This document shows, piece by piece, positions 29,043-47,938 of a stretch of DNA of 64,000 nucleotides (positions within the stretch are counted from its first letter, which is position 1; every line of letters starts with the position of its first letter). The translations under genes and the position numbers were made by a program. Origin of the DNA: an uncultured Actinomycetota bacterium. GTDB lineage: Bacteria > Actinomycetota > UBA4738 > HRBIN12. A model generated the notes under the pieces. It was not told the origin of the DNA. It ran no database searches and saw only the letters and a program-made list of their open reading frames with translations. The DNA lies in assembly GCA_963733635.1 (NCBI GenBank), contig CAVTEH010000009.1:64873-128872 (forward strand), in the 5' to 3' direction.

Positions 29043-29120
29043 GTGTCGATCCCCTTCGGCATGGGTGTCCTTCTTGGGAGATCCTCACCGGTGTGCCCAA
29101 ACGATTCCTGAACCGCGTCA

Positions 29121-29137
29121 TCAAGGATCCTTCAAGC
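29121..29137 (-). promoter_or_regulatory. TCAAG-N6-TCAAG direct-repeat box 1
   Basis: TCAAGG-ATCCT-TCAAGC, 79 bp upstream of the TolB-1 start. Confidence 0.75.
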
Positions 29138-29228
29138 CCTGACCTGGACGCTCGAGGCACGGACCTGCGCAGCCTCGCGGGGTGGTCCGAGCCACGAAGT
29201 AGCCACGCTTTGCTCGGGCGCTGCCCTG

Positions 29229-29719
29229 CTACAGGCCCACGTAATGGCCACGGTTCGGTGCGACGTCCCACGGACCTGCGCAGCACGCTATGGTCCTGAA
29301 TCGCACGACCTTGTGGATGTCGAACCACCTGCGCGGAAGACTGCACGCGATGCTCCGCTCGTTCGGTCGCCGCGCGTTCTGCCTGCCGATGACACGCTCG
29401 TCGCTCCTCGTCACGCGGCATCGGAACCCGTGGTCCGGGCCCCCGTTCGTGAAGAAGACCAACCGATCCGCCGCCCGCGTGCCATGAGTGTCCATGGACA
29501 CGACCTCGAAGGACGGCGAGTCACCATAGGAGTCCCATGTCCCGATCCACAGGACGACGCGGTTGCGGTTGATGCGAGTCACGACCGTCCGAATGTCGCG
29601 ATCGCCAGACCCGTCCTGCCCGTCGCGGCGCACTGCCAGGGTCGCGAGCCGAAGCGGTCTCCGCGAGCATCCCCCCGATCATTCCTACCGTCAAGCAGCA
29701 CGATCGAGGATCGCCGCAC
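29229..29719 (-). CDS. Secreted Cys-containing hypothetical protein (frameshifts in signal region)
   Basis: Signal-like MRRSSIVLL..; C-terminus IACSLPRRWF...DVAPNRGHYVGL. Confidence 0.6.
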
Positions 29720-29796
29720 GACTGCCCCCTTCGTTGTCATCCCCTTCTTCACCCGCTCTCTCCCTTCAATGCGGCCCGCCGCACGCGCGTAGGCGG

Positions 29797-30865
29797 TCAT
29801 CCGACGCTCGCTCGGGAGAGACTCACGAGGATCCCGTCCGGGCTCCAGCTCGGCTCGGCGTCCTCGGCGTTCCACAGCAGCGTTCGGTAGCGATCCGTCC
29901 GCACGTCGACGATGCCAAGGCGCCCGGGGGCTCCAAGGCCGTCCACGAAGACGACCGAGCGACCGTTGGGAGACCAGCTCGGGCCGTACCTCCACTGTCT
30001 GACCCACCGGCGCCCCTCGAGCGGATGCTCTTCAGTGCCGTCTGCTCGGACGAGCCACGTCCCTGCCCACGGCCATGAGCTACCGGTGGACCCCGGCGAG
30101 AACTCCGTGTAGGCGATCCACTGGCCATCCGGAGACCATGTGGGGTACGGGCCGCCCCCATACTTCAGGTCGAGCTCGACGAGGGGCCCGTCTGGGATCG
30201 ACGCGACCGCGACCCGGCCATGGCTCCGGCCCGGGATGGCACGGCCGCTCTGGAAGACGATGCGTGCGCCGTCCGGAGACCAGTCCGGGATGACCGTCGT
30301 GTCTCGCGGTCGAGGCGAGCCGTCGGATGCGACCGCCGCGAACGTCGATCACGAAGATGTCCGCGTCGGACGGTCCACCCTTGCCACCTGGGCGCGTACC
30401 GACGAACGCGATCCGGGTCCCGTCGGGCGACCACGTGGGAGCTGAGGCAGGGCGCTTCATATGCGTCAGCTGCCGCGCCGTCCCGTCGGCCTTCAGCAGG
30501 AAGATCTGGGACGGCACTCCGGGAGCGCCGCTCTGTAAGACGACCTGCTTTCCGTTCGGTGAGAACTCGGCGTTCGTCTGGGACCCACGGCCAGCCACGA
30601 GCAGGGTCAGTCGTCCCGTCCGGGGCTCCATCAGGTAGATGTCCGATCCCTTCTTGGTCTCATCACTTCCCGTGGATGACAGCGTGGTCGACGAAGCGTC
30701 GACGGGGGACTCGGCGGAGCCGCTCTTCTCGGGAAGCGAGTCTTGAGAAGGTCTGCACGAGGCCACAAGCACCGCTCCGATGAGCACGCGCGAGAACGTT
30801 GAGCGGACAGTCCTGGCTCCCGCCCTCTGCACCAGCAACGAGGCGGTCCTGCGTGTGTTGGGCAT
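29797..30865 (-). CDS. TolB-like PD40 beta-propeller lipoprotein (paralog 2, frameshift near 30290)
   Basis: Lipobox LVASC; GSQTNAEFSPNG, PTWSPDG, PSWSPNG, PSWSPDGILVS. Confidence 0.85.
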
Positions 30866-30894
30866 GTGCCGACCCCCATGTGGTAAGGCGGCGG

Positions 30895-30924
30895 TGGGCT
30901 CCGGGAACCGCGTCCCGGAGCCCA
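30895..30924 (-). terminator. Conserved hairpin 3' of dirigent-like gene 1
   Basis: TGGGCTCCGGGA-ACCGCG-TCCCGGAGCCCA. Confidence 0.65.
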
Positions 30925-30932
30925 GCCGCCCG

Positions 30933-31427
30933 TTACGGGATCAGGTGGAGGGTGTAGGCGTCCTCCGTGCGCGTGGCGTGTCCGCGAACGTTCACGTAGG
31001 CCCCGGTGCCGCCGGTGACCGCCCAGTTGCGGGTGCCGGGGCCGAACAGCTGATACCCCGTAGTCACCACCGTCCCGCGCTGGGTGTTCGGGCCGGCCTT
31101 GAGCTTGTGGACGAAGGTGCAGATCTCACTGGTGGCACCCTCCGGTCCGTGGGATGGGCCAAGGCAGGTCTCGTTCATATGCCCGACTTTGTTGCCGTCC
31201 ACGTCGAAGAGCGGCCACTTGCCCAACAGGATCTGCCCTCCTCGGCGCCCGTCGTGCTCGCGCAGCTCGTAGAACCGAAAGACAGCGGGCTTGTGGAAGA
31301 CGTCGAATTCCAGCTTGACCTCCTCAGGTTGGGTGATGCCACCCCCTCCCCCGAACGAGACGCCGACGAGCGCTCCCGACATCAGGAGCGAGGCCGCGAT
31401 CGCCCCGACGATCAGCTTCCTCGTCAT
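30933..31427 (-). CDS. Secreted dirigent/allene-oxide-cyclase-like beta-barrel protein (paralog 1)
   Basis: Signal peptide; LFDVDGNKVG..C..C; WAVTGGTGAYVNVRG is the dirigent/AOC-fold GGTG motif. Confidence 0.7.
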   Translation of the reverse strand: MTRKLIVGAIAASLLMSGALVGVSFGGGGGITQPEEVKLEFDVFHKPAVFRFYELREHDGRRGGQILLGKWPLFDVDGNKVGHMNETCLGPSHGPEGATSEICTFVHKLKAGPNTQRGTVVTTGYQLFGPGTRNWAVTGGTGAYVNVRGHATRTEDAYTLHLIP

Positions 31428-31514
31428 GTGCTGCTCCTTCCTCTCGGCCAGCTACCTCCGCCTACCTGAACGAGATCGTCGCCGGTGGGCCCAAGCGGTT
31501 CCTGAATCGCGTTA

Positions 31515-31531
31515 TCAAGGATCTGTCAAGC
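31515..31531 (-). promoter_or_regulatory. TCAAG-N6-TCAAG direct-repeat box 2
   Basis: TCAAGG-ATCTG-TCAAGC; flanks nearly identical to box 1. Confidence 0.75.
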
Positions 31532-31626
31532 CCTGAGTTGGAGGCTGCCGGTGTGTTGACTCCGGTGCGCCCCGGGACGGATCGGCTCTCTGGCGCTCTT
31601 GAGGGCGAAGTTCGATACTCGGTCGG

Positions 31627-34600
31627 ATGAGGGAGACGAAGCACGCTCCCGTGGAGGTCGATCAGCCGCCGAACGGTCACAGCCACGAGCTCACTCGAAG
31701 GGCGCGCCCGCTGGGAGGATGCGGTTCCGGATCCTCGGGTCGCTGGAGGTCGAACTCGCTGGGCAACCGATCCAGCTCGGGCGGACCACAGCAGCGGGCG
31801 GTCCTCGCGCATCTGATCATCCGAGCCAACGAACTGGTTGCGGCCGATGTCTTGGTGAGCGAGATCTGGGGAGACGAAGCGCCGGAGGCGGCGCGGAACA
31901 CGATCTACACGTATGTCTCCCACCTGCGGAAGATGCTCGGCGCAGACCGCATCGAGAGTCAAACCCCCGGCTACCGTTTGCGGCTCGATCCGTCAGAGCT
32001 GGATGCCACCCGCTTCGACAAGCTCGTCAACGACGCGAGGAAGGCCGGGGTCATCGACCCGGGCATCGCCCTGACCGTGCTCGACGAAGCACTCGGGCTC
32101 TGGCGCGGCCTGCTCTCGCCGATGTCGCCGACGACGGCGCGCTGCTCGCGGAGGCGACGCGCCTCGATGAGCTCAGGCTGGTGGCCGGTGAGGAGCGCAT
32201 CGACGCCATGCTGGCGATCGGGGAGCCCGCCCGAGTCATCGGCGAGGCCGAGATCCTGGTCGGACAGCACCCGCTCAGGGAACGCATCTGGCGACAGCTC
32301 ATGCTGGCCCTCTACCGCGAGGGGCGACAGGCTGATGCCCTCACCGCGTATCAGCGCGTCAGGGAGATCCTCGCCGACGAGCTCGGGATCGATCCTTCGC
32401 CGGAGCTCGCCAGGCTGCACGAGCGGATCCTGAAGCAGGACCCCGGGCTCGAGCTCCGAGGTGAGCCTCTCCGCGGTTACCGGCTCTTGGAGAAGATCGA
32501 CGACGGACCCACCGGGGTCGTCTTCAGAGCGATCCAGCCCCGTGTGGGCCGCGACGTCGCGGTCAAGATCTTCCACGAACAGGTCGCTTCGGACCCTGCG
32601 TTCGTGCGGCGATTCGAGCAGGAGGCTCAGGCGGCTGCGGCCCTCGAGCATCCCCACATCGTTCCGGTCTACGACTACTGGAGGGAGCCCGGCCGCGCGT
32701 ACATCGTCTCGCGGTACCTGAAGGGAGGAAGCCTCGCGGCCCTGGAGAGCAGGGGCGATCGGCTCGCGCAAGGAAGTGGATCGCTCGTCGTGGAACAGGT
32801 GGCCTCTGCGCTCGGGTACGCACACCGACAGCACGTCGCACACGGGAGGGTATGCGCCTCCAACGTGTTGTTCGATGGGGAACGGAACGCCTACCTCGGG
32901 GACTTCCAGGTCGGCGTCGGGACGACTCCGGATCCGGCCGATGACGTCCGCGAGTTCGCCTCCCTCGCGCGAGGCGTTCTCGACGACGACGCACCGCCTC
33001 GCCTCAGGGAACTCATCGAACGAACGAACCTCGGAGCCGAAACGCCCGGCGCGGAGGCGTTCGCTGACGCCGCACGCGCGTCCTTCGAGCAGGAGACGGT
33101 TCCGACCGTCCGAACGGACGACGTCCGCAACCCGTACAAGGGCCTCAGGCCGTTCAGCGAGGCCGACGCCCACGACTTCTTCGGACGGACCGAGCTCACC
33201 GCGCGTCTGATCGGCCGGCTCGGCGAGACCGGGCGGGGGTCGAGGTTCCTCGCCGTGGTCGGGCCGAGTGGTGCAGGGAAGTCCTCCGTGGTCAGAGCCG
33301 GGATGGTTCCAGCGATCCGGCAGGGCGCCCTCGGGGACCCGCAGGCGTGCTTCGTCGCCGAGATGTTCCCTGGAGTGCACCCGATCGAGGAGCTGGAGCA
33401 GGCGCTCCTTCGCATCGGGACGCACCCGGCCTCACAGCTGCATGACCTGCTGGATCGGGACTCGAGAGGGCTCCTCGAAGCGTTGGTTCTCGTGCTCCCT
33501 GAACCCGCGACGCTCGTGCTGGTCGTGGATCAGTTCGAGGAGGTCTTCACGCTCACGGCCGACGAGCACGAGCGTGAGCTGTTCCTCGAGTCCTTACGCG
33601 TGGCGGCATCCGATCCTGAGAGCAGGCTTCGCGTCATCGTCACGCTCCGTGCCGACTTCTACGATCGCCCGCTCATGTACCCACGCCTGGGCGAGCTGCT
33701 CGCGGCGAGAACGGAGGCGGTGCCACCGCTCACGCCCGACGAGCTCGAGCAGGCCATCAGACGGCCGGCCGAAGAGGTCGGCATCACGGCCGAACCCGGC
33801 CTCGTTGCGGAGGTCATCGCCGATCTCGCGCACCAACCCGGCTCGCTTCCGCTGCTGCAGTACGCCCTCACCGAGCTGTTCGAGCGACGCGAAGGCGATC
33901 GGCTCACCCTCTCGGCCTTCGAGGAGATCGGGGGCGTCGGAGGGGCCTTGTCCGCTCGAGCGGACCGCATCTTCGCGACGACCGGGCCCGACGGTCAGCG
34001 GGCCATCCGACAGGTGTTCCTGCGGCTCGTCACGATCGGGGAAGGCCGGCAGGACACGCGGCGTCGGGTCACACGGAGCGAGCTCGACGCGCTCGACGTG
34101 GATCCGGAGCTCATCGAGATGACGATGGACACGTACGGACGTCACCGCTTGCTGACGTTCGATCGAGAACCGGCAACTCGGGAGCCGACCGTCGAGATCG
34201 CGCACGAGGCCCTGCTCGTCGCGTGGACCCGGCTCCGCGTCTGGATCGACGACGCGAGGGAGGACCTCCGCCAGGATAGGCGCCTCTCCCGGGCCGCCGG
34301 GGAATGGCGGGGGTCCGACCGCGATCCGAGCTTCGTGCTTCGCGGCGCACGGCTGGAGCAGGTCGAGACGTGGGCCGCAGCGACCGACCTCGCGATCGGC
34401 CGCCCCGAGCGCGAGTACATGAAGGCGAGCGTCGACGTGCGTGATCGGGAGATGGAGGAGGAGCGGGCCAGACGCGCGCGCGAGGAGAGGACGGAGCGTC
34501 GATCCCGTTCCCGGCTGCGGGCTCTGGTCGCGGTGCTCGCCGTCGCCGCTGTGGTCGCCGCGACCCTCACCGTCCTCGCCACGGGCCAGCGCGGAAGAGC

Positions 34601-36692
34601 CGACCGTGAGGCCACGAAGGCTCAGGACGAAGCGCGGGTCGCGACAGCGAGGGAGCTGGCGAACGCCGCCGTCTCCAACCTGGAGGCCGACCCCGAGCTC
34701 AGCATCCTGCTCGCCATGGAGTCGATCGATCGGACCCGCTCGGTCGACGGCACCGTGCTTCCCGAGGCTAAGGATGCCCTCCATCAGGCTGTCGTGGCGT
34801 CACGGATCGAGGTGACGATGCCCGGCGTCGGGGGGGAAGTCGCCTGGAGCCAACAAGGGATGCTCGCCGCTGCGAGCGCCGAAGGCGAAGGGATCGTCGA
34901 GATCAGGGATGCCGAGACCGGTGCGCGAGTGCGCTCGCTCCAGGCCCACGACGGCGCGATCACCGGCCTCGCCTTCAGCAGGACCGGGGCCATGCTGGCA
35001 ACGACCGGGGGCGACGGGATGCTGAAGGTGTGGGATTCCTCAAGCGGCGAGCTCCTCTCCAGGGTCCGAGGGGCCGGCGAAGCGCGTGCTCCGGCTTTCG
35101 ATGTTCATGGCGTTCGCGTAGGGGCCGACTGGGTCGGCATCGACACGGTCCGGATCGCGAACCCGATCACCGGCCACGTGAAGACCTCCGTCGCCGTTCC
35201 CCCTGGGGTCGTAGCATTCGATCCCGACCTTCGCCGGATCGTCGTGGTGAGCAGACGGGCCGCCGTTGTGCTCGACCTCGAGACCGGTCGTGGCATCGAG
35301 CTCAGAGGATCCGTCGATCTCCTTGAGGACTACGGCGGCTCACTGGCGTGGAGCCCCGACGGCCGCTGGATCGCGGTGGGCTCGACGGGCTGGGCGAACA
35401 TCTTCGATGCGCGAACGGGACGGTCCCCATTCAGCCTGCCTCACAATGAATTCGTGTCGAGCCTAGCGTGGAGTCGCAACTCCACCCGAGTGGTGACCGG
35501 TGGGTCGGAAACCGCGAAGGTGTGGGAGATCGAGAAAAGCGGGCCGGAACAGCTCATCTCGCTACCGCCGGCGATCGCACCCAGCGTGATCGCGAGCGTT
35601 GCGTTCTCGCCGGATGGAACGCGGATCCTTACTTCCGACGCCGACGGCACGGTCGCGAAGATCTTCGACATCGACATCTCGGGGGACGCGGAGGTGGCGA
35701 ACCTGCCCGCCACTCCGAACTTCGGCGATGTGGAGTTCATGCCCGATGGGGTACACGTCGCGAGGCAAGTCAGCGAGGACCGCTTCATCGCGATCTGGGA
35801 TCTGGAAACCGGACGGACCGTTCGAAGGATCGGGCCTCCGGGGTCATGGTCCTACGGGTTCACGCAAGCGCAGTTCGAGGTGAGTCCGGACGGAGCATCG
35901 ATCGCCGCGATGTCGGGGGATGGGGAGGCCGGCGTCTGGGACATCGCGTCGGGGGATCGGCTCTTCGCCATCCCGGAGGACGAGCTGGTCTCGCTCGTGG
36001 ATTGGAGTCCGGACGGCAAGCACGTGATCATGGCGAGCCTGCACGGATGGGCGAGGATCCTCGATCGAACCGGTCGCACGATCCAGGTCCTGCGCGAGGA
36101 CGACGGGTACGAAGCGGTGGGCGCGACGTTCAGCTCCGACGGCCGCTTCGTGGCGCTCAGCGCGAGTCCCGACGGGGAGGTTCCGAACCTCGAGCCACGA
36201 ACGAAGATCTGGGACGTGGAGCGAGGGCAAGTAGTGAGCACCATCGTGGGGAACACCAGCGGCTGGTCCGCGTTCAGTCTGGACGGCTCTCGCATCGTCA
36301 CGACGACCGACCCAGCGGGACCGGCAACTGTGTGGGACGTGATGACCGGTACCCTTCTCGCAGTGCTGGATGGCGTGGTGACCAACGTCGACTACAGCCC
36401 CGACGGCTCCCGGATCGCGGCGGCGATGAGGGACGATACGGTCCGCCTGTTCGACGCGAGCTCAGGCGAACAGTTGCTCGTCCTGCGAGGCCACGACAAC
36501 CCAGTCGCGTTCGTGGACTTCAGCCCGGACGGAACGATGCTGGTGTCGGGCGCGGCTGACACAGTCGTTCGGGTCTGGGCTCTCCATCTCGACCATCTCC
36601 TCGAGATCGCCCGGCGAGAGCTCACGAGATCACTCACCGACGAAGAGTGCCGGCAGTACCTGCACCTGGAGCGTTGCCCGGCGGGCCAGTGA
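31627..36692 (+). CDS. SARP (wHTH-BTAD)-pseudokinase-nSTAND1 NTPase-TM-WD40 regulator (paralog 1; compensating indels near 31780 and 32110; alternative start 31719)
   Basis: FRILGSLEV, YVSHLRK, ALGLWRG, HPLRER, ELGIDPSPEL; VAVK; NPYKGL, GPSGAGKSS, VDQFEE, RADFY, LPLLQYAL, EIAHEAL; hydrophobic helix; many WD/SPDG repeats. Confidence 0.92.
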
Positions 36693-37284
36693 GCTGGGCA
36701 GCGATGGTTCGGTCGACTGGGTCAACCGCGTACGCGTCCAGCAGCGCCGCGATGACTTCCGAAGGGGCTAGGACCCCACGGATCGGATACCCCGTATCCC
36801 GCGCGGTCGCGAGGTGGCGATCGCACATGGGGACGAGCCGATGCCGAGGGACCCGGGCAACATGCTCGACGGCCGAGTCCGGGCGCTGCTGCCAGAAGCA
36901 GAACGGACAGATCAGTCCGAGCCTCTGCGGGTACGCGAACCGACCTCGGTAGGCGTACTCGTGCTCGATGATCGTCCCCCACAGGGCCACCGTTCCGAGC
37001 ACGGCGGGGTCACGGGTGCGCCACAACAGCCGACGATCCTTGGCGCCATAGATCCCGCACGAGCATCGTACGAACGGAGCAGCGTGGACTCGCCCGCGGC
37101 TGCACCGAGCCTGCTCACGAACTCGTGGCTGCCAAGCGCGGCGGGCACCGACGGTGGGACGCAAGAGGGGCGTCCCGGCCCTCGCATCCATCCCCAGGGT
37201 CCACGTGCGCCAGACCTCCACCGCCTCCGGCACCACATCCACGGTCGATGAACTCGGCAACGAGGTCTGGTCGAGCGCGCTCAT
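36634..37284 (-). CDS. Cys/His-rich hypothetical protein (WRxW...CxCGIY...VLGTVALWG..IEHE..YR family)
   Basis: Intact 216-aa ORF, ATGA-coupled to an upstream small ORF; additional CPFC and C-x2-H motifs. Confidence 0.7.
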   Translation of the reverse strand: MSALDQTSLPSSSTVDVVPEAVEVWRTWTLGMDARAGTPLLRPTVGARRAWQPRVREQARCSRGRVHAAPFVRCSCGIYGAKDRRLLWRTRDPAVLGTVALWGTIIEHEYAYRGRFAYPQRLGLICPFCFWQQRPDSAVEHVARVPRHRLVPMCDRHLATARDTGYPIRGVLAPSEVIAALLDAYAVDPVDRTIAAQLTGPPGNAPGAGTAGTLRR

Positions 37285-37421
37285 CGTTCCGCAGGTACGG
37301 CGACTTCCTCGTCGACCGAGGTGCTGACGACCGGCACCCTGACGTCGAGCGTCTCAGGGACCGGGGCGCTGACGGGTTCCGCCTCGAGAACGCGGATCAC
37401 GGCTCCGATGTTCATCGTCAT
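37281..37421 (-). CDS. Small acidic, Val/Pro-rich protein, 46 aa (MTMNIGAVIRVLEAEPVSAPVPETLDVRVPVVSTSVDEEVAVPAER)
   Basis: Strong SD AAGGAGG; stop overlaps the next start (ATGA). Confidence 0.7.
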   Translation of the reverse strand: MTMNIGAVIRVLEAEPVSAPVPETLDVRVPVVSTSVDEEVAVPAER

Positions 37422-37502
37422 TTCCTCCTTCCGGCCATGCTCCAGCGAGCATCGTGAGAACCAGACTCGACGATCCCGCTTGGAAGGTGCTGGACGAACT
37501 CA

Positions 37503-37519
37503 TCAAGGAATCGTCAAGG
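37503..37519 (-). promoter_or_regulatory. TCAAG-N6-TCAAG direct-repeat box 3
   Basis: TCAAGG-AATCG-TCAAGG, 82 bp upstream of the small ORF. Confidence 0.75.
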
Positions 37520-37522
37520 ACT

Positions 37523-37548
37523 TGGGCTCCGGGCCGACCCGGAGCCCA
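37523..37548 (-). terminator. Conserved hairpin 3' of dirigent-like remnant
   Basis: TGGGCTCCGGG-CCGA-CCCGGAGCCCA. Confidence 0.65.
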
Positions 37549-37556
37549 TCGCACTG

Positions 37557-38230
37557 TTACGGGGCCAGGTAGATGGTGAAGGTGGCCTTGTTGCCGTCTT
37601 CCACCTCCACCGCGCGGCCGCCCGCGTTCTCGTAGGCGCCTGTTCCTCCCACGACGGCGAGATTGTGGAACCCGCGAGGGCCTTTTACACCGGTGGCGAC
37701 CACCTGTCCTTGGTCGGTGTTCGGACCATGCTTGATCCCTTCTCCCCTGGGAGAGTGCCGACGAACGCGATCTGGGTCCCGTCGGGCGACCAGGTGGGGT
37801 CGGAAGCCCCACCTTTCATGTGCGTCAGCTTCGGCGCCATCGGCCCCTCCGCACGAAGATCTGGGAGGGGACGCCGGGAACGTTGCTCTGGTTACACGAT
37901 GCTCTCACCGTCGGTGAGAGCTCAGTGTTCGTCTAGGAGCCTCGTGCGGACACGAGCGGAGTCGCTTCCCCGGTCCTCGGATCCGACAGGGGATCCACCA
38001 TGAAGATGTCTCGCCCGTCGGCCCGTTCAGCCGACGCTACTAGGGTGGGCGACAGCTCGTCGACGGAGACGACTGCGGATCCGCCGACCGCGGGGGGAGG
38101 GTCCGGCGAAGATTCGCATCCAGATGCGAAGGCAAGTAGAAGAACGACGAATGCGACCTGGTGGCCGCGGACCGTCCTGGCTCCTGCCCTCTGAACGAAC
38201 AAGCGAGGCGTTCTCCTGTGTGTCCTGCAT
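37557..38230 (-). pseudogene. Chimeric pseudogene: TolB-like N-terminus joined to dirigent-like C-terminus
   Basis: 5' part matches TolB-1 (AFASGC, DGRDI, PTWSPDGTQIAF) with a TAG at 37933 where paralogs read GSQTN. 3' part from about 37738 reads KHGPNTDQGQVVATG...VVGGTGAYENAGG. Confidence 0.75.
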
Positions 38231-38253
38231 GTGTCGACCGCCTTTGGCTGGTG

Positions 38254-38289
38254 CGGGTGGGCCGCTGGAGGCGGCCCACCCGGAGCCCA
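38254..38289 (-). terminator. Hairpin 3' of dirigent-like gene 2
   Basis: CGGGTGGGCCGC-TGGAG-GCGGCCCACCCG, retaining the CCCGGAGCCCA arm. Confidence 0.55.
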
Positions 38290-38298
38290 ACGCGCGCG

Positions 38299-38790
38299 TT
38301 ACGGTGTCAGTTGCAGGATGAAGGGGTCACGCCCTGGTCCGTCCTCGAACGTGGCGAAACCACGGACGTTCTCGTAGGCTTCGGTTCCGCCCGTCACCGC
38401 GAACACATCCGGGTTCGCCGGACTGGCGTAGATGCCCGTGGTGACGACCGTCCCTCGCTCGGTGTGCTGGCCGGTCTTGAGCGTCAGGACATAGGTGCAG
38501 ACCCAGTTGACCCCGGTCGCGACCGTGCAGGAGGCGTTCAGACGCCCGACCTTGTCGCCGTTCACATCGAAGAGCGGGTTCTTGCTCAAGCTGACCTGCC
38601 CTGTTCGGTGTCCGCCTAGCTCCCGCAGTGGGTAGAACCGACACTGACCCTTGTTCCCGCAGATGTCCACCGACAGCTCGATCACCTCGGGTTGGTTGAT
38701 ACCACCCCCTCCTCCGAACGAGACGCCGACCAGCGCCCCCGACGTCAGGAGCACTGCTGCGAGCGCCCCGACGATCAGCTTCCTTGTCAT
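38299..38790 (-). CDS. Secreted dirigent/AOC-like beta-barrel protein (paralog 2)
   Basis: MTRKLIVGALAAVLLTSGALVGVSFGGGGGI.QPE as in paralog 1; FAVTGGTEAYENVRG. Confidence 0.72.
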   Translation of the reverse strand: MTRKLIVGALAAVLLTSGALVGVSFGGGGGINQPEVIELSVDICGNKGQCRFYPLRELGGHRTGQVSLSKNPLFDVNGDKVGRLNASCTVATGVNWVCTYVLTLKTGQHTERGTVVTTGIYASPANPDVFAVTGGTEAYENVRGFATFEDGPGRDPFILQLTP

Positions 38791-38848
38791 GTGCTGCTCC
38801 TTCCTCGTTCTCATTCCTGGGTTGCTCCATCGTGGTCGCTCCATGGCA

Positions 38849-40803
38849 TCAACCTCTCCGTTCCACCAGGAGCGTCTCGTCGTTGAGCCAGTCGTAGCCG
38901 CACCCTTCCGACAGCAAGGTCGAGCGGCCCATCGACATGTCTCGGATGTACAACCCGCCCCGCCGGTAGGTCTGCGGATCGCCGTCGGTCGAGTAGAAGA
39001 TCCATCGACCGTCGGGCGACCACCTACCCTGACCGGTGTCGCCGGACCAACCACCTCCGGAGCGGACCAGGATCCGCTCCTTCCTCCCGTCGGCTTCGGA
39101 GACCCAGACCTGCGCGTAGGTGCCCATCCCGTTCCCTTCCTGCCAGGTGGCGAGCCGAGGGAACACGATCGTTCGCCCGTTCGGAGAGAAGGAGCCATAC
39201 CCTCGGTCTTGGAGCAGGAGCCTGGGCCGTCCTCCATCGAGGGGCATCGTCCAGAGGTCGCTGGGCCATTTGCCGGCCGGAGCGTTCCCGGGTCGCGTGA
39301 AGAGGACCTCGTTCCCGTCAGCACTGAACGTCGGGGTCTGGAAGGCTCTCGCTATGCCATGTGCCAGGCGCGTCGTCGTACCAGTCGAGACATCCACGAC
39401 TGTGAGGTCGGCTGGCGTGAGCCAGCAACAGAGCCGCGCCCAGCCGCCGAGGTAGACGACCTTCGTCCCGTCGGGGGACCAGCTTCCCTGTGAAGCTCCG
39501 GCCGGATCGTCCGTGAGCTGGCGCAGCCGGCTTCCATCGATGTTCGCGACCCAGATCTGGTGGTGCCCTGGTCGGATCGGCTTGTCTGAGGGAGTGAACC
39601 ACCTCGCGTTGTCGAACAGGATCTTCGTGCCGTCGGGCGAGATGTCGTAGTCGCCGGCACCAGGGATGGACATGATGCTGCGTGGCACGGGAACCGCCAC
39701 TCCCGTCCGGACGTTCACGAAGTAGGTGCCGGCCTCCAGGTGGACGAGGGGCAAACGCTTCCACCGGAACTTCCGCACGGGGACGGCGTCCGAGGCGGTG
39801 CTCGCCCGGCTCATCAGGATCCCGCTAGGACTCCAGCTCGGACCGACGTCAGCCTCGGTGCCGGGGAACGTGCGGACCCGTTTCGACCCAAGATCGACGA
39901 CGACGACGACGCCGTCTGCGGAGAATACGATCGAGCCCCCATCCGGAGACCAGCTCGGCACCTGCCTGAAGCTGTATTCGCCACCAGGGCGCGTGCCGAC
40001 GCGCCTCTGGTGTGTACCGTCCGGTTGCATGATCCACAACTCCGAACTGACGGGCTTCCCGTTGATGCCGGTCAAACTGCTGAACCGGCTGAATGCGATC
40101 CATCGCCCATCCGGCGACCAAGCAGGTTCGACCTCGTTGAGCCCGTCTTGATCTGCGGTGAGCTTGGTGATCGTGCGACCCCGCACCGATGCCACCCAGA
40201 TCTGAGCGGCAGTGATGGGGTAGGGGTAGTTGTCTTGGTCGTTGTAGAAGCGGCTGTGGAACGCGATCCGCGAGCCGTCCGGTGACCAGTCTGGGTAGGC
40301 ATCGGGTCGAGGCGTCCCGCCACCGATGGAGACGGTTTCCGTCCGCGTCCACCACGAAGATGTCGGAGTCGTAGCGAGCACCTTCGCTCTCCAAGCGGAT
40401 GCCGGCGAACGCGATCCGTTCTCCGTCGGGCGACCAGGTCGGCTCGGAGGCTCCGCGCTCCATGTGCGTCAGTTGGCGCGTCGTCCCATCCGCGCTCAGC
40501 GTGAAGATCTGCGGCGGGGACCCGGGGACATAGCTCTCGTACACGACCCGCATGCCGTCCGGTGAGAGCTCGGCGTTCGCCTGAACTCCAGGCGCACGGA
40601 GCAGCACGCTCAGATGCCTCGTCTCAGGATCGATGAGGTAGATATCGGGCCCCGGTGCAGCGTCGACGGTGGCCGCAGGCGATGGAGATGTCGTTTCGGA
40701 CGAGGCGACCAGGGTCGACGATCCGGTGCACGCCGCCGACGATGAATACGAGCACTGCGCCAAGGGTCACAACAACGTGATTCCGGGTTCCTTCTCTGGT
40801 CAT
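38849..40803 (-). CDS. Double TolB-like PD40 beta-propeller lipoprotein (paralog 3, frameshifted)
   Basis: SD GAGGAGG, lipobox-like GG(A)C, about 10 WSPDG/FSADG/ISPDG repeats in two blocks. Confidence 0.85.
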
Positions 40804-40863
40804 CGGATTCCTCCTCGCGACGGAACTTCGCAGGGGAGGCTGAACGATCGCTGGACCGTGACG

Positions 40864-40880
40864 TCAAGGATGTTGCAAGG
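40864..40880 (-). promoter_or_regulatory. TCAAG-N6-(G)CAAG direct-repeat box 4
   Basis: TCAAGG-ATGTT-GCAAGG, 61 bp upstream of the TolB-3 start. Confidence 0.7.
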
Positions 40881-40986
40881 CCCGACGATCAGGATGGCCG
40901 GGTGACGACACGCGTCCATCATCTCGGGACGGAACGGCTGGCTGGCGCTCTCAGGGCCGAAGTTCGATACTCGGGCCGGTGATCAG

Positions 40987-43900
40987 ATGGCCGATACCGC
41001 CACCTCGAAGGATCGACCTCGACACACAGGTGGGCCCAGGATGCAGTTCCGGATCCTCGGCTCCCTGGAGGTCGAGCGCGCGAACCAACCGCTCACCCTC
41101 GGCGGACCCCGACCGCGTGCGCTGCTGGCGCATCTGATCGTTCGAGCCAACGAGCTGGTCCCGACCGATGTCCTCGTGAGCGAGGTCTGGGAGGACGACG
41201 CGCCGGCATCCGCGCGAGGCACGATCCACTCGTACGTCTCCCGGCTCCGGAAGGAGCTCGGCGCCGATCGCATCGAGGGGCAGAGTCCCGGCTACCGCCT
41301 GCGGCTCGATCCGTCGGAGCTGGACGCGGCGCGGTTCGACAGGCTCGTCAACGACGCCAAGAAGGTCGGGGCGCTCGACCCCGGCATCGCTGCGTCCATG
41401 CTCGAAGAGGCGCTCGGCCTTTGGCGCGGTCCCGCGCTCGCCGACGTCGCCGAAGACGGCGCCCTGCGTGCCGAGGCGACGCGTCTGGACGAGCTGAGGC
41501 TGGTCGCCGCGGAGGAGCGCATCGAGGCCGTGATGGCGGTCGGCGAGCACGCCCGGGTCATCGGTGAGGCCGAGCTATTGGTGGCGCAGCACCCGCTCCG
41601 GGAACGCCTGTGGAGCCAGCTCATGCTGGCCCTCTATCGCGACGGACGCCAGGCCGACGCGCTCGGCGCGTACCAGCGACTGCGGGAGATCCTGGCCGAC
41701 GAGCTGGGGGTCGATCCGTCACCCGAGCTCGCGCGGCTCCACGAGCGGATCCTGAGGCAGGATCCGGACCTGGAGCTCCGCGGCGATCCGCTGCGCGGCT
41801 ACCGCCTGTTGGAGAAGATCGGCGAAGGACCGACCGGGGTCGTCTTCCGGGGGCTCCAGCCCCGCGTGGGGCGGGACGTCGCGGTCAAGATCTTCCACGA
41901 ACAGGTCGCGTCGGACCCCTCGTTCGTGCGGCGGTTCGAACGGGAAGCGCAGGCGACCACGGCGCTGGAACATCCCCATATCGCCCCGGTCTACGACTAC
42001 TGGCGCGAGCCCGGCGGCGCGTACGTCGTCTCGAGGTACCTCAAGGGAGGAAGCCTCGCGGCCCTCGAGGCCCGGGGTGGTGGGCTCGAGGCGGATCGTG
42101 CGTCGCTGGTCGTCGAGCAGATCGCGTCGGCGCTGGCGTTCGCACACCGACAGCACGTCGCGCACGGCGGGCTGCGCCGCCTCCAACTGCTGTTCGACGG
42201 GGAGAACAACGCCTACCTCGGGGACTTCCGTGTCGGCGTCGGGCCGGAACCGGAGCCGGCCGATGACATCCGCGAGCTGGCACGGCTCGCCAAGAGCCTC
42301 TTCGATGGACGAGATGCCGCATCGACTCCGTGCGCTCGTCGAGACCACATCGCTTTCGGATGAGGTCCCCGGCGCGGAGGCGTTCGTCGAGGCCGCCCGG
42401 GCTGCCGCCGACCCCGAGACGGCTCCTAGCACTCGACCGGCCGACATCCGCAACCCCTACAAGGGTCTGAGGCCGTTCACCGAGGCAGACGCCCACGACT
42501 TCTTCGGGCGGAGCGAGCTCACCGCGCGGCTGCTGGGTCGGCTCGCCGAGACCGGGCGGGATGCCCGGTTCCTCGGCGTCGTGGGCCCAAGTGGCGCGGG
42601 CAAATCCTCGGTGGTCAGGGCCGGGATGGTGCCGGCGATCCGGCAGGGCGCCCTCGGGGATCCACAGGAGTGCTTCGTTGCCGAGATGTTCCCAGGGACC
42701 CACCCGATCGACGAGCTCGAGCAGGCGCTCGTCCGGGTCGGCACGCACCCGGCGTCACGCCTGCACGACGTGCTCGATCGAAGCTCGAGAGGGCTGCTGG
42801 ACGCCCTGGACCTCGTGCTGCCCGCACCGGCGATCCTCGTCCTGGTCGTCGACCAGTTCGAGGAGGTCTTCACCCTCACCGCGTGACGAGCACGAGCGGG
42901 AGCTGTTCCTCGAGTCCTTGCGCGTGGCGGCACTCGATCCCGAGAGCAGGATCCGAGTCATCGTGACGCTTCGCGCCGACTTCTACGACCGCCCTCTGAC
43001 GTACCCGCGGTTCGGCGAGCTGCTCGCGGCACGGACCGAGGCGGTGCCTCCGCTCACGCCCGACGAGATCGAGCAGGCGATCCGACGGCCGGTCGAAGGG
43101 GTCGGCATCGCCGTCGAGCCCGGCCTCGAGGCCGAGATCATCGCCGACGTCGCCCACCAGCCCGGCGCGCTTCCGCTGCTCCAGTACGCGCTCACGGAGC
43201 TGTTCGAGCGACGGGACGGCGACCGGCTCACCCTCGCGGCATTCGAGGAGATCGGCGGCGTGGCGGGAGCCCTGTCGGCGCGGGCCGATCGCATCTTCGC
43301 GACCGCCGAGCCGGACGGGCAGCGGGCGATCCGACAGGTGTTCCTGCGGCTCGTCACGATCGGCGAAGGACGGCAGGACACGCGGCGTCGCGTCACGCGG
43401 AGCGAGCTCGATGCGCTCGACGTCGAACCCGAGCTCGTCGAGACGGCGCTGGACACCTACGGACGCCACCGGTTGCTGACGTTCGATCGGGAGCCGTCGA
43501 CCCGGGAGCCGACGGTCGAGATCGCCCACGAGGCCCTGCTCACCGCGTGGGCACGGCTCCGCACGTGGATCGACGATGCGCGCGAGGACCTGCGTCAGGA
43601 CCGGCGCCTGGTTCGCGCGGCCGGGGAGTGGCGCGGTTCCGATCGCGACCCCAGCTTCCTGCTCCGGGGCGCACAGCTGGAGCAGGTCGCGGCGTGGGCC
43701 GCATCGACCGATCTCGCGATCGGCCGGCCCGAGCGCGAGTACGTCAAGGCGAGCGTCGACAAGCGTGACCGGGAGCGTGCCGAGGAGCAGGCCCGGCGCG
43801 AGCGCGAGGAGCGGACGGAACGCCGATCCCGTTCGCCGGTTGCGCGCCCTCGTTGCGGTGCTCAGCGTCGCTGCCCTCGTGGCCGGAACGCTCACGGTCA

Positions 43901-46055
43901 TCGCGACCCGCCAGAGCGAGCGCGCGGAGACCGAGGCGAGGGTCGCGAGCGCGAGGGAGCTCGCGGCCGCCGCGGTGGCAAACCTCGAGAACGACCAGCA
44001 GCTGAGCGTCTTGCTCGCCATGGAGGCGGTGGACCGGACCCGCTCGGTCGACGGCTCCGTCCTGCAGGAAGCCGAGGAGGCGCTCCATCAGCGCGGTGAC
44101 GGCGTCGCGGATCGTGACGTCGATCCCGGGCTCGGGCGACGCTGGAACCCAGCGACGAGGCACTGGGGGGCCATCGACTGGGGTCCGGCGGGGCTCGTCG
44201 TGATGGACGGGGTCTTCGCGTCCGAGGGGCGCCGCCCGTCGGGATCATCGACCTCAGGGACCAGGAGACGGGGGAGATCGTGCGATCGCTCCCCGGACAC
44301 GACGGGAAGCTCACCGGGGCCGAAATTCAGCCCCGACGGCTCGACGCTCGCCACGACCGGCGAGGACGGTCGGCTCAAGATCTGGGATCTGCCGAGCGGC
44401 GACGTGATCGAGAACGTCAAGGGCCCCGGCGTGGCGCGGGGCCCGTCCTTCAGCGCGGACGGGTCGCGGGTCGCAGCGGCATTCGGCGAGTTTCGGACGG
44501 GGTGGATCGGTGCGAGTCGTGGATCTGAACACGGGCGGGGTTCAGACGTTCCCAGCGGCGCCATGGACGAACGACGTCGCGCTCAGCCCGGACGGGAGGC
44601 GGGTCGTCGCCGTCGGCGGCTCCTGGGTCAGAGGTCTTCCATCTGATCGATGTCGAGACCGCGGAGGTCCATCGGATCGCGGGAAGCCCGGCCGGCAACG
44701 GATTCCTCTCGGTCGCATGGAGCCCGGACGGGCGGCACATCGCTGCGGGTGGTTGGGACTCCCAGGTCCCGGTGATGGACGCGAACGGACGACCTCGAGT
44801 TCCTGCTCCGGGGCCACAGCTCGGCGCCCACTGGGTCGACTGGAGTCCCGACGCGACCCGCCTGGTCACCGGAAGCGACGATGGGACGGCCAAGATCTGG
44901 GAGATCACCGGCTCAGGGTGCGACGGAGGTGCAGACCCTCTCGGCGCGTGCCGGGGAGATGACCGGCGTCGCCTTCTCGCCCGACGGCACCCGCGTGATG
45001 ACCCGCTCGGAGACGAGGGTGATGGACGTCTGGGACGTCGGTCCGACGGGCGGCGCCGAGGTCGCGAACGTCGCCGGCGCGACGGAGCTCGTGAGCTTCT
45101 TGTCGGATGGGCGTCACGTAACGACCAGCGGCAGGGATGGCTCGCTGAGTATCCTCGATCTCGAGACCGGAGAGCAGGTTCACCGTCCGAACCGATGGTT
45201 CGAACTGCCGCGGGGGCCTTACTCGGGCTATGAGTTCAGCTATGACTTCAGCCCGGACGGCAGATCCGTCGCCATCTACAGCTACACCCGCGGGAAGCAC
45301 ACCCTTCGAGACGTCGAGACCGGAGCCGAGCTCCTGACGTGGCGAACAGCCCACACGGTTTCGACTGGAGCCCGGATGGCCGGTTCGCGGCCGTGAACGG
45401 GGGACGGATCGATCACGATCTTGGACGCCTCCGGACGAAGGGTGGGCGTTCTAGAGGCGGACGGGTTCACGATCCTGGAGGGTCTCAGGTTCGGTCCGGG
45501 TGGCCTCGTCGCGATCCGGCGACCGGAACAAGGAGCGGGGCGACGCACGATTTGAAGATCTGGGACTGGACGCGTGACGAGGTCGTCGCGGAACTGCCGG
45601 TCTCGAGAATTCATGAGTTCATGGCAGTTCGACGCCGATGGGAGCACGGATCGCGATCGGGGACGCCGAAACCACGATCTGGGATGTGCAGTCCGAGCGA
45701 CTCCTCGTGACCTTGCCCTCGAGCCAGGTTTGCCCACCGACATCGCGTTCAGCCCGGACGGCTCCCGGGTCGCCGAAGGGCGACCCCGATGGAACCGTGC
45801 GGGTGTTCGACACGAGCTCGGGCGAGGAGGTGCTCGCCCTTGGAGGGCACGACGTTGCTGACCAGGTGGCCTTCAGCCCGGACGGCTCGATGCTCGCGAC
45901 GGTGGGCGACGGGATCCTGCGGATCTGGGCGCTCGACATCGACGACCTGCTCGAGATCGCCCGACGAGAGCGTCACCAGATCGCTCACCGACGAGGAATG
46001 CCGGCAGTATCTCCACGTCGAGTCCTGCGCCGTTCGCATGATGCGCGTAGCGTAG
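40987..46055 (+). CDS. SARP-pseudokinase-nSTAND1-TM-WD40 regulator (paralog 2; many frameshifts; alternative start 41041)
   Basis: Same domain order and motifs as paralog 1; ends LEIAR..TRSLTDEECRQYLHVESC. Confidence 0.9.
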
Positions 46056-46076
46056 GGTAGTCTGTCTCAGACTACC
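46052..46076 (+). repeat. GTAG-type REP-like palindrome (family B)
   Basis: GTAG-GGTAGTCTG-TCT-CAGACTACC between convergent genes. Confidence 0.55.
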
Positions 46077-46092
46077 TTGAGCTCCGGGACGG

Positions 46093-47601
46093 TCACGGTC
46101 GGGTGGCCACGGCACAACCGCCGGAGTACGTGGGAGGAGCTGATCGGAGGACGTGTACGGACCCCGGATCATCGACGGCGTTCTCCATCTCCCAGGGGTC
46201 CTCGACCAAGTCGAGCAGCTCCATGGCCCCTGACTCGTACACGACCAGCTTCCAGCGGTCTTCCCGGATCCCACAGTAGTCGAGCCGCGCTCCGGGACCG
46301 TCGGCGTACTCGATCACGCTCCGATTCCTCCAGGCGATGTCTCGTCCGGCGAGCAGTGGTAGGAGGCTGTCGCCATCGACCGGCGCGGATGGCTCGATCC
46401 CGGCGACATCTGCGATGGTCGGCGCTAGGTCGATGTTCAGCACCGGCGTGGCGTCGCTTCGAGCCAGCCCATGGGTCAGGGGGTCGAAGCGAATCACCAT
46501 CGGCACTCGGATCGATTCCTCGTAGGGCCAGATCTTGCCCTCGAGGCCGTGTTCGCCCCACATGTAGCCGTTGTCAGAAGTCAGGATGAACATGGTGTTG
46601 TCCATCTCACCGATGCGGTCGAGCCACTCCACCATGCGTCCAACCTCACGATCGACCCCCGCCAGCGCGCGGTACTGCTGAAGGCGGACGCGATCGATCC
46701 CCGCGATCCGCTCCCGATCGAGGAGCCCGTCCTTCGGGAAGGGGCGTGAATCGTCGGTGCGATCCACCACACCGAACGAGGGTGGTCGCCACAGGGCCAG
46801 CTCGGAGAACGCCTTCGCGTCGCGCCTGAGGGGGATGAAGGGCTCATGAGGGGCTGGGAGTCCCAGCATCGCGAAGAACGGCTCGTCTGGGTATCGTGCG
46901 ATCGACCCCCGGATGAAACCGCGCATCAGCCTAGGAAACGCCACGGTGGAGTGGTCACGTTGCCGCGTGCCGTACCGGCGTCGTTCGCCGTCGATCGCCA
47001 GCACATAGTCGAGATAGCCCGCGAACTTCGTTCGATCCACGATCGGAGCGAATCGATCCCAGCCGGGTGGCCGACCGCGAGCACCGGGGTTCCCGTATCC
47101 GTTCAGGTACTTACCCACGAACAGCGTGTGGTACTGGACGTCGTGGAGCCAGGTCGCGATCGTCGACGAAGGGTCGAAGGCCTCGGCGCCACCCATGGGC
47201 GGGTGATTGGTCCAGACGCCCGTGTTGTGCGAGTACTGCCCCGTGAGCATGCTGGCCCGACTCGGACAGCAGAGCGGGTTGACCACGGAGGCGTTCGTGA
47301 ACGTGACGCCCTCGTGCATCAGGTACCGCCGCACGTTGGGCATCGCGCCCAGGGTGTCGAACCGTTGATCGTCCGTGAACAGGAGGAACACGTTGGGACG
47401 GTCCGGCTCACGATCTTCCGTCATCCGCGCCGCGCCATGTCGTTCGAGCTCGGCTTTCGGAGTCCCCGACGTGCCGGGCAGCGCCGCGCACGCCATCGGT
47501 ACCGCGAGCGCGATGACCACCATGATCGAAACGATCCATCGCAGTTGGATGATCCCTCCGGCCTCGTTTCGCCGGCGCCTGTTGGATCCGAACTCGGCCA
47601 T
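46093..47601 (-). CDS. Formylglycine-dependent sulfatase (S1; N-acetylglucosamine-6-sulfatase-like), exported or lipoprotein
   Basis: PNVFLLFTDDQ, LCCPSRASMLTGQY (CxPxR), GKYLN, TSDNGY.WGEH, YEESIRVP. Confidence 0.92.
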   Translation of the reverse strand: MAEFGSNRRRRNEAGGIIQLRWIVSIMVVIALAVPMACAALPGTSGTPKAELERHGAARMTEDREPDRPNVFLLFTDDQRFDTLGAMPNVRRYLMHEGVTFTNASVVNPLCCPSRASMLTGQYSHNTGVWTNHPPMGGAEAFDPSSTIATWLHDVQYHTLFVGKYLNGYGNPGARGRPPGWDRFAPIVDRTKFAGYLDYVLAIDGERRRYGTRQRDHSTVAFPRLMRGFIRGSIARYPDEPFFAMLGLPAPHEPFIPLRRDAKAFSELALWRPPSFGVVDRTDDSRPFPKDGLLDRERIAGIDRVRLQQYRALAGVDREVGRMVEWLDRIGEMDNTMFILTSDNGYMWGEHGLEGKIWPYEESIRVPMVIRFDPLTHGLARSDATPVLNIDLAPTIADVAGIEPSAPVDGDSLLPLLAGRDIAWRNRSVIEYADGPGARLDYCGIREDRWKLVVYESGAMELLDLVEDPWEMENAVDDPGSVHVLRSAPPTYSGGCAVATRP

Positions 47602-47688
47602 CGATGGCTCCCCTCGTGTCCCTGCCCTCGCTCCGGGCGGTCACTCGGACCCTCCAGCAAGCCCCTTGACGGACGCCGAACCCTGCTC

Positions 47689-47705
47689 TCAAGGTTTCTT
47701 CAAGC
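47689..47705 (-). promoter_or_regulatory. TCAAG-N6-TCAAG direct-repeat box 5
   Basis: TCAAGG-TTTCT-TCAAGC, 88 bp upstream of the sulfatase start. Confidence 0.72.
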
Positions 47706-47800
47706 GCCCACGCGAAGCTGCAATGGCGATGGCTGCGCCGAACAGGTCCCCCGGGGAGCGGCTCCTGGTGCCAGGTACCGCGAGGTTCGATCTCGGTCCG

Positions 47801-47938
47801 ATGAGTGAAATGAGGCAGGCTCCCGGACCGGCCGAGCAGATTGCCAAGCACGCGCCGCGGTCACCCACGTGACCGGCCTCGGCTGGACAGTTGCAGTTCC
47901 GGATCCTAGGACCGGTCGTGATGGGCCAAGGTGAGTGA
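47801..47938 (+). pseudogene. 5' stump of a third SARP-type regulator
   Basis: Upstream GAGGTTCGAT-CTCGGTCCG-ATG resembles the promoter of paralogs 1 and 2. TTGCAGTTCCGGATCCTAGGACCG encodes LQFRILGP, then the frame ends. Confidence 0.65.

Follow-up and report, generated by a model that had tools for sequence, protein, structure and literature searches.

We analyzed a 64,000-nucleotide stretch (hereafter, the window) of contig CAVTEH010000009.1 from an uncultured Actinomycetota bacterium, whose assembly, G000, comprises 3,047,072 bases in 10 contigs and is 55% complete. Five minus-strand transcription units are clustered between 28 and 47.7 kb of the window, each with one copy of a short repeated element, the strong box, ahead of it. 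The only plus-strand genes of the cluster encode two paralogous giant regulators that combine a SARP region with nSTAND1 NTPase and WD40 domains, and boxes 2 and 4 are located within the divergent intergenic regions adjoining these two genes (Table 1). Throughout, G-numbers denote genomes, L-numbers fetched loci and C-numbers contigs of G000.

The N-terminal part of the regulators has the organization of the SARP family, an OmpR-type winged helix followed by a BTAD domain. In regulator 2, Pfam searches detected Trans_reg_C (E = 1.8e-8) and BTAD (E = 1.5e-46), and a comparison of residues 2–244 with the Protein Data Bank yielded EmbR (E = 1.3e-47) and AfsR (E = 2e-41). In regulator 1, BTAD was detected at E = 1.1e-33, and the winged helix-turn-helix (31774–32112) is intact, in another reading frame, between two frame changes. 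The remainder of the architecture is not that of AfsR-type SARP-NOD-TPR proteins: BTAD is followed by part of a Pkinase domain, the NTPase belongs to nSTAND1 (E = 1.2e-117), and the sensor consists of WD40 repeats. This kinase-like domain (residues ~290–440 in both regulators) covers only the first 144 of the 263 Pfam positions and, in the translations read by eye, shows HG(R/G) at the position of the HRD motif, without the usual catalytic Asp. It is probably a pseudokinase module.

The strong box and the array around it

The pattern TCAAGGNNNNNKCAAGS has exactly five matches in the window, all on the plus strand, at 29121, 31515, 37503, 40864 and 47689. Dinucleotide-preserving shuffles contained 0.02 matches on average, and none of 100 shuffles contained five. 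The pattern had been written after the sites were seen, and looser, independent patterns were therefore counted as well. Read in gene orientation, CTTG-N7-CTTGA occurs 11 times on both strands of G000, and five of these occurrences are the sites of the cluster, located within 18.6 kb. The exact pattern CTTGA-N6-CTTGA has five matches on both strands of the assembly, four of them in the cluster; an exact match at C8:7253, which has no correctly oriented gene downstream, was taken as a chance occurrence. When one mismatch is allowed, there are 42 matches in G000, with six at 27–49 kb of the window, namely, the five sites and one copy within a coding region at 40136. Elsewhere in the assembly, the box is no more frequent than expected by chance (one-mismatch background, ~11 per Mb).

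The boxes precede the minus-strand starts at 29042, 31427, 37421, 40803 and 47601 by 79, 88, 82, 61 and 88 bp, respectively. An initial sequence-only reading of the window had described five copies in a single orientation at these positions and distances, had noticed none elsewhere in the window, and had proposed a genome-wide scan. Pattern matching and start-codon coordinates bear out the description, the scan places the concentration of matches in the cluster with chance levels outside it, and the one-mismatch copy at 40136 is the only addition within 27–49 kb of the window. The same reading considered simple carry-over by duplication unlikely because the genes downstream are not homologous. 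The gene types are indeed as it described, but the promoters at sites 1 and 2 are homologous over ~75 nt, so that about four rather than five sites are independent. Site 4 has an orthologue in G014. What sites 3 and 5 have in common with the others is limited to the repeats and hexamers at fixed registers.

Numbered in gene orientation from the first C of CTTGA, the strong box turns out to be only half of a larger array, which spans ~44 bp, has approximate dyad symmetry and consists of four repeats in helical phase. CTTGA begins at positions 1 and 12 in four of the five sites, and site 4 reads CTTGC/CTTGA. This strong pair is followed by a gap of 8 bp, by TYCRG at position 25 and by a weaker pentamer at position 36 (TTTGG, CTTGG, CCAAG, TTCAG and TCAAG in sites 1–5). 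TYCRG is a sharper form of the C(T/C)G(A/G)A-like element that had been noted about 9 bp towards the gene: it starts exactly 8 bp past the box in all five sites and in none of the 37 other one-mismatch matches in G000. GANNNT, six bases past the position-36 pentamer at positions 51–56, likewise occurs in all five window sites (GAGGAT, GACGAT, GAGTCT, GAAGTT and GAGGGT in sites 1–5). The second-position A and sixth-position T of this right-hand hexamer are found in 5/5 sites vs 1/37 background matches, and the corresponding left-hand hexamer, described below, is found in none of the 37.

GANNNT is a candidate −10-like element. If it acts as one, transcripts would start near position 63, and the resulting leaders of 32, 41, 35, 14 and 41 nt would each end in a ribosome-binding site. 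On this assumption, the four 11-bp units span −62 to −52, −51 to −41, −40 to −30 and −29 to −19. The strong box then occupies about −62 to −47, with its 3′ repeat 32 bp, not 8 bp, from the hexamer. The proximal pair occupies −40 to −19, with the heptamer at positions 36–42 separated from the hexamer by 8 bp in all five sites, and TYCRGS falls at −38 to −33, leaving a 20-bp spacer. In the available portion of PMC10936776, SARP sites are described as direct repeats at 11- or 22-bp spacing, the 3′ member of which is 8 bp away from the −10 element. The arrays show direct repeats at the 11-bp spacing of SARP elements. The 8-bp distance is found for the proximal pair at 5/5 sites, counted from the putative −10, and for the strong box on the plus strand at boxes 1, 2 and 4 only. 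Thus, for the minus-strand genes, the canonical SARP position would be held by the weak proximal pair beginning with TYCRG rather than by the strong box.

Three other assignments of these elements were rejected. TYCRG lacks the conserved A and T of a −10 and, at 8 bp past the box, is too close to pair with the second repeat; it is not a third in-phase direct repeat either, as its distance from the second CTTGA is 13 rather than 11 bp. An extracytoplasmic function-type GGAAC/CGTC reading of sites 1 and 2 has no counterpart in sites 3–5. No sigma-70 consensus (TTGACA-like and TATAAT-like hexamers 16–18 bp apart) was found in 28900–47900, with a shuffle mean of 1.0, and no Rfam family matched at gathering score in 27000–49000.

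Table 1 Genes, boxes, proximal pairs and candidate −10-like hexamers of the cluster (window coordinates)
Feature	Coordinates	Strand	Description or context
Unit 1	27999..29042	-	PD40/TolB-like β-propeller, lipoprotein-type signal
Site 1 proximal pair and −10-like hexamer	29081..29114	-	pair GGTTCAGGAAT CGTTTGGGCAC 29093–29114; GAGGAT 29081–29086
Box 1, strong pair	29121..29137	-	GCTTGAAGGATCCTTGA in gene orientation; upstream of PD40 lipoprotein gene 27999–29042
Unit 2	29229..31427	-	dirigent-like 30933–31427, then PD40 30080–30865 (probably continuing in other frames)
Site 2 proximal pair and −10-like hexamer	31475..31508	-	pair 31487–31508; GACGAT 31475–31480
Box 2, strong pair	31515..31531	-	between dirigent-like/PD40 operon (30933–31427 and downstream) and regulator 1
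−10-like GAGGCT	31541..31546	+	8 bp past 3′ heptamer of box 2; candidate regulator 1 promoter
Regulator 1	31719..36692	+	SARP (wHTH-BTAD), half protein-kinase, nSTAND1 NTPase, WD40 (Pfam)
Unit 3	36634..37421	-	46-residue open reading frame 37281–37421; Cys-rich 216-residue protein 36634–37284
Site 3 proximal pair and −10-like hexamer	37463..37496	-	pair 37475–37496 (inverted box copy, 9/10 core); GAGTCT 37463–37468
Box 3, strong pair	37503..37519	-	upstream of 46-residue open reading frame (37281–37421) and 216-residue protein (36634–37284)
Unit 4	38299..40803	-	PD40 in three frames (40803–38849), then second dirigent-like 38299–38850
Site 4 proximal pair and −10-like hexamer	40824..40857	-	pair GGTCCAGCGAT CGTTCAGCCTC 40836–40857; GAAGTT 40824–40829
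Box 4, strong pair	40864..40880	-	between PD40/dirigent-like operon (start 40803) and regulator 2
−10-like CAGGAT	40890..40895	+	at SARP distance from box 4; candidate regulator 2 promoter
Regulator 2	41041..~46060	+	architecture as regulator 1; frames 40987–42363, 42561–44099, 43576–44646, 44881–45396, 45638–46060
Unit 5	46093..47601	-	sulfatase, N-terminal membrane/signal segment
Site 5 proximal pair and −10-like hexamer	47649..47682	-	pair 47661–47682 (inverted box copy, 8/10); GAGGGT 47649–47654
Box 5, strong pair	47689..47705	-	upstream of sulfatase gene 46093–47601

Boxes and regulators in related genomes

Homologues of the regulators (E <1e-100) are present in 14 of 36 other species of the genus, often in multiple copies, and at the fetched homologue loci the box, with at most one mismatch, is found near the 5′ end of the regulator gene. 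A de novo count of gapped tetramer pairs recovered CTTG-N8-TTGA in 8 of 13 upstream regions vs 0 of 13 coding controls; the 13 regions include L012 from G019, an unpublished genome, and no conclusion rests on L012 or on G041, which is likewise unpublished. The pattern CTTGA-N6-STKGA-N8-TYCA, counted across 37 genomes of the genus without selection of loci, has eight matches, compared with none for the reversed control. Three of these are sites of the window, and the other five, in G030, G020, G014, G015 and G035, are all located 70–1040 bp upstream of, and divergent from, a regulator homologue. The enrichment near BTAD-STAND genes that the sequence-only reading had asked about is therefore observed, with every match of the genus outside G000 (5/5) within 1.1 kb of a regulator homologue. 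The density of one-mismatch boxes is consistent with this association: 23 are present in 359 kb around the regulators of 14 other genomes, or ~64 per Mb, against the background of ~11 per Mb in G000.

The same polarity was found in 80 public loci, which, by their titles, come from metagenome-assembled genomes of uncultured Actinomycetota. Upstream of the regulator, 186 kb of these loci contain 29 boxes, against one in 259 kb downstream. A box is present in 18 of the 23 loci where the regulator is at least 57% identical and in 3 of the 57 loci with more distant regulators. Box presence thus follows the phylogeny of the regulator, as would be expected if the SARP domain reads the box. The recognition helix is nearly invariant across 10 regulators, and covariation with box variants is thus uninformative. 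Among 60 relatives, the exact pattern was found only in G010 and G014, apart from a chance match in G041, within the reverse-transcriptase gene of a group II intron. This near absence indicates that the full five-site regulon is specific to G000.

Variants of the arrangement were found at several of these loci. A second type of box, CTTGnGCGGTTCTTGAC, lies on the regulator's own strand, ~75 bp before a GTG start, in L015–L019, L021 and at C3:430532. In G010, G030, G015 and G035 (L014, L020, L022 and L024), the box-adjacent genes divergent from the regulator encode membrane-anchored proteins of ~150 residues with 'MTGAREGGPY'-type repeats. At L074 and L075, where the regulator belongs to a more distant class with 57% identity, four CTTGAAG/CTTCAAG heptamers form two inverted pairs with a 12-bp centre, 86–130 bp upstream; in L074, this palindromic array is located between the regulator and a divergent sulfatase gene.

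G000 itself contains a third, fragmented SARP-kinase-STAND-WD40 regulator (G000:C3:425000-430600; L140), with a related box, CTTGTGCCGTTCTTGAC, ~75 bp before its start; the second-type box at C3:430532 adjoins this regulator. Two further one-mismatch boxes are located in the same area, at C3:425296 and C3:424191.

Proposed composite operators and competing explanations

The proximal 16 bases of the array are often an inverted copy of the box, with 9, 8 and 8 of the 10 core positions matching in sites 3, 4 and 5, respectively. Inverted copies were also found in relatives (10/10 in G020; 9/10, with a 9-bp gap, in G012), and the inverted-pair arrangement recurs in public loci including L060, L062, L063, L065 and L095. 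Of 26 sites, 23 have a gap of 8 bp separating the strong from the proximal pair, the remaining three being those of G012 (9 bp) and of L074 and L075 (12 bp). When the strong box is read as SARP heptamers (T-C-A-A-G on the plus strand), it faces the plus strand and hence, at boxes 2 and 4, the regulator genes. On that strand, NANNNT lies 8 bp past the 3′ heptamer of the strong box at boxes 1 (GACGCT), 2 (GAGGCT) and 4 (CAGGAT), and no hexamer is present at this SARP register at boxes 3 and 5.

In an offset analysis of sites from several genomes, the regulator-side hexamer was present in 22 of 26 sites and the gene-side hexamer in 14 of 26. Across an offset scan from −90 to +134, with a background of 0.035 per position, these two positions gave the two highest peaks. 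They are the positions that the SARP rule predicts, and they mirror each other around the centre of the 8-bp gap. Counted by homology class (10 classes in our grouping), the hexamer is present in 7/10 on the regulator side and in 5/10 on the gene side. The simplest reading of this symmetry is that back-to-back SARP-type promoters share one composite operator. The regulator genes at boxes 2 and 4 are probably also driven by the strong pair, which would amount to autoregulation. Boxes 3 and 5 have perfect strong pairs and the 8-bp gap is kept in most sites, which suggests that the strong pair serves the minus-strand promoters as well. In the G014 orthologue of box 4, the flank towards the regulator is identical and that on the gene side differs, as if the halves of the array were modular.

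The leaders of both regulator genes (31600–31620 and 40960–40980, plus strand) share a ~50-nt block, …GGACGGAnCGGCT…CTGGCGCTCT…GAAGTTCGATACTCGG…, which may be a second promoter, with GATACT as its −10, or a leader element.

Taken together, these observations make it probable, although short of certain, that each of the five boxes forms the high-affinity half of a composite SARP-type operator at an activator-dependent promoter, and that these promoters together define a cluster-situated regulon of exported proteins. The boxes are most likely docking sites of the two adjacent SARP-type sensor-regulators. We infer the regulon, the binding, the transcript starts, the direction of control and the signal from array anatomy, statistics, co-occurrence and domain content.

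Under this reading, the WD40/nSTAND1 part of both regulators would sense a signal and drive oligomerisation. The SARP domains would occupy the strong pair and then, cooperatively, the weak proximal pair, the strong pair serving as an upstream anchor that helps the oligomerised regulator to fill the weak one. The proximal dimer would recruit RNA polymerase to promoters without a usable −35. At boxes 2 and 4, where the strong pair is itself at the SARP distance from a plus-strand −10-like hexamer, the result would be positive autoregulation. A more ambitious version, which we put forward only tentatively and consider doubtful, is that an NLR-like STAND sensor with a pseudokinase module and a SARP output binds the dyad as a dimer of dimers and fires its own gene and the exported propeller, dirigent-like and sulfatase genes back-to-back. 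If correct, this would give a transcriptional branch to a STAND clade whose discussion otherwise centres on conflict systems, and its operator grammar of four repeats in inverted pairs with a fixed 8-bp centre would be one undescribed for Streptomyces SARPs.

Several observations weigh against the composite-operator interpretation. The sequence-only reading had taken the 11-bp period as SARP geometry; the 11-bp phasing stands and true SARP regulators adjoin the boxes, but, for the minus-strand genes, the best-conserved pair is off the canonical SARP position. Conservation of the fourth repeat is weak. Because the hexamer core, ANNNT, is self-reverse-complementary, the strand of the hexamer is assigned from geometry and is unreadable from the sequence. 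The strong box faces the plus strand, yet boxes 1 and 3 have no credible plus-strand gene. In the relatives, the promoters of the 'AREGG-repeat' genes lack the gene-side (right-hand) hexamer, and the second box type departs from the 8-bp rule, its distance from a good extended −10, TGTGTACGGT, being larger by one helical turn. Many of the sites outside the window are orthologous to one another and sites 1 and 2 are paralogous, so that site counts overstate independence. At 55% completeness of G000, there may also be regulon members outside the cluster. Finally, regulator 1 has two frame changes, regulator 2 is in at least five pieces, and two PD40 genes occupy three frames each. These changes are concentrated at 31599–46060 and 29229–40803, and the neighbours examined, such as the 796-residue P-type ATPase at 25154–27544, are unbroken. 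The frame changes may reflect mis-polished paralogous repeats or real decay; if they are real, the system may be decaying.

An alternative that we regard as unlikely is that the strong boxes are plain two-repeat SARP boxes of plus-strand promoters only, chiefly for autoregulation of regulators 1 and 2, with boxes 1, 3 and 5 being duplicated or relic halves and the minus-strand genes driven, if at all, by the weak pairs. The heptamer orientation on the plus strand fits this view, as do the NANNNT hexamers at 8 bp at boxes 1, 2 and 4 and the greater consistency of the regulator-side hexamer. In G030, G015, G035, G023 and G010, moreover, the box lies 70–90 bp before the regulator start with a hexamer on that side only, and the flank of box 4 retained in G014 is the regulator-side one. 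However, boxes 3 and 5 are perfect strong pairs without a plus-strand hexamer, boxes 1 and 3 face no credible gene, and the near-constant spacing of the two pairs points to one coupled operator rather than two boxes. The full proximal geometry is, in addition, present at all five minus-strand promoters.

Lower still do we rate the possibility that the array is bound by another factor, for example an OmpR-family or dimeric one encoded elsewhere, and that the proximity of the SARP-STAND genes reflects co-regulation. SARP sites are described as direct repeats, and the partial dyad symmetry is atypical of them; an RHH/CopG gene (47935–48237) adjoins box 5; and the link proposed here between the SARP domain and the array comes from association. 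Nevertheless, the regulator family is the only consistently adjacent gene across genomes, and it emerged from an unselected search; box presence tracks regulator similarity in the public loci, and the box is not distributed genome-wide as for a global regulator.

It is very improbable that no dedicated factor is involved and that the boxes are alternative-sigma promoter elements or were inherited with duplicated promoter segments: the homology of sites 1 and 2, the orthologous promoters conserved throughout in G016, G009 and G014, and the overlap of the first CTTGA with a TTGAC-like hexamer 17 bp upstream of TYCRGS agree with such an origin, but sites 3 and 5 share only the phased repeats and hexamers with the rest, the defining A and T of a −10 are missing from TYCRGS, the second CTTGA, which is the best conserved, would sit in the promoter spacer, no sigma gene is among the cluster genes, and away from regulators the motif occurs at the chance rate in the composition and reversed-pattern controls.

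Among the genes downstream of the arrays, the Cys-rich 216-residue protein of unit 3 matched no Pfam family. It has 151 protein matches at E ≤0.001; the best 120 of the 151 range from 93% to ~41% identity, and the named ones among these 120 come from Actinomycetota metagenome-assembled genomes. The protein is also encoded near regulator homologues in G017 (L043) and G014 (L044), in G017 with a box-like site ~280 bp upstream. In a tblastn search of 100 loci, the target types found beside regulator homologues were PD40 (21), dirigent-like (9), the 216-residue protein (2) and sulfatase (1). Within the cluster, the minus strand at 37557–38202, between box 3 and the second dirigent-like gene, contains short pieces left over from a PD40 repeat, the C-terminus of a dirigent-like protein and the N-terminus of a PD40 lipoprotein, which are signs of tandem duplication and decay of target modules.

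Comparison with known activators

To our knowledge, what is known of SARP activators comes almost entirely from antibiotic clusters in cultivated Streptomyces. The cluster described here would place SARP promoter logic in an uncultured, small-genome lineage of Actinomycetota, with putative control over exported β-propeller, dirigent-like and sulfatase proteins. No new principle is involved; what the locus offers is a testable regulon, with five promoters, one 44-bp array and two candidate binders, and a natural case for how an oligomerising STAND protein might read four phased repeats and drive divergent promoters. The array can also serve annotation, as a search handle for targets of the regulator family in metagenome-assembled genomes.

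A functional parallel is provided by MalT of E. coli, a STAND activator with a promoter-proximal site near −38 and two distal direct-repeat sites, at which multimerisation results in cooperative occupancy. The resemblance is functional only: MalT has a LuxR-type helix-turn-helix, not a SARP domain, and the box sequences are unrelated. Closer in family are the ActII-ORF4/DnrI-type SARPs, whose sites have a TCGAG core. The core of the arrays is TCAAG/TYCAG, and they differ further in having two inverted pairs and no biosynthetic gene cluster. Alike are the heptameric direct repeats with an 11-bp period, which in the arrays would also overlap the −35, beside the activator gene of the cluster, as described in the available portions of PMC10972967 and PMC10936776.

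A literature search covering the accessible parts of articles turned up neither a description of SARP-nSTAND1-WD40 regulators nor one of this box; supplementary tables may list such cases. In the accessible parts of the SARP literature consulted (PMC10936776, PMC11301090, PMC10972967), the four-repeat inverted-pair layout and exported, non-biosynthetic targets are likewise absent. SARP sites of two to three heptamers are what the available text of PMC10972967 describes. According to the same text, PimR, a SARP-LAL protein, is also a large SARP, its sites need not overlap the −35, and the number and spacing of repeats vary, which provides a precedent for upstream SARP sites such as the strong pair. 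PimR differs in its three direct heptamers and LAL-type C-terminus, and no inverted pair is described for it in that text (PMC10972967).

The closest known counterpart is the afsS promoter of Streptomyces coelicolor with its activator AfsR, a large SARP with a STAND NTPase. As given in the available part of PMC10936776, two 11-bp repeats at afsS cover −40 to −30 and −29 to −19; 8 bp separate the 3′ repeat from the −10, and TTCAGC, a poor −35 hexamer, occupies −38 to −33. The arrays have the same layout when counted from the putative −10, with TYCRGS in the place of TTCAGC. The unusual 20-bp spacer between the −35 and a suboptimal −10 at afsS (PMC11301090, available part) is equally matched on that putative −10. 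The AfsR repeat CGTT(T/C)ATCGNN (PMC10972967, available part) resembles the fourth unit of site 4, CGTTCAGCCTC. Unlike afsS, the sites described here have a second, better-conserved inverted pair 8 bp upstream, which yields a four-repeat dyad, and the target at afsS is a small pleiotropic regulator, whereas here the targets are exported proteins. The regulators also differ from AfsR in carrying a half-kinase of doubtful catalytic competence, nSTAND1 in place of the AfsR NOD, and WD40 in place of TPR. By analogy, the array would work like an afsS-type SARP operator, read by regulators that are SARPs by their domains and not by AfsR architecture.

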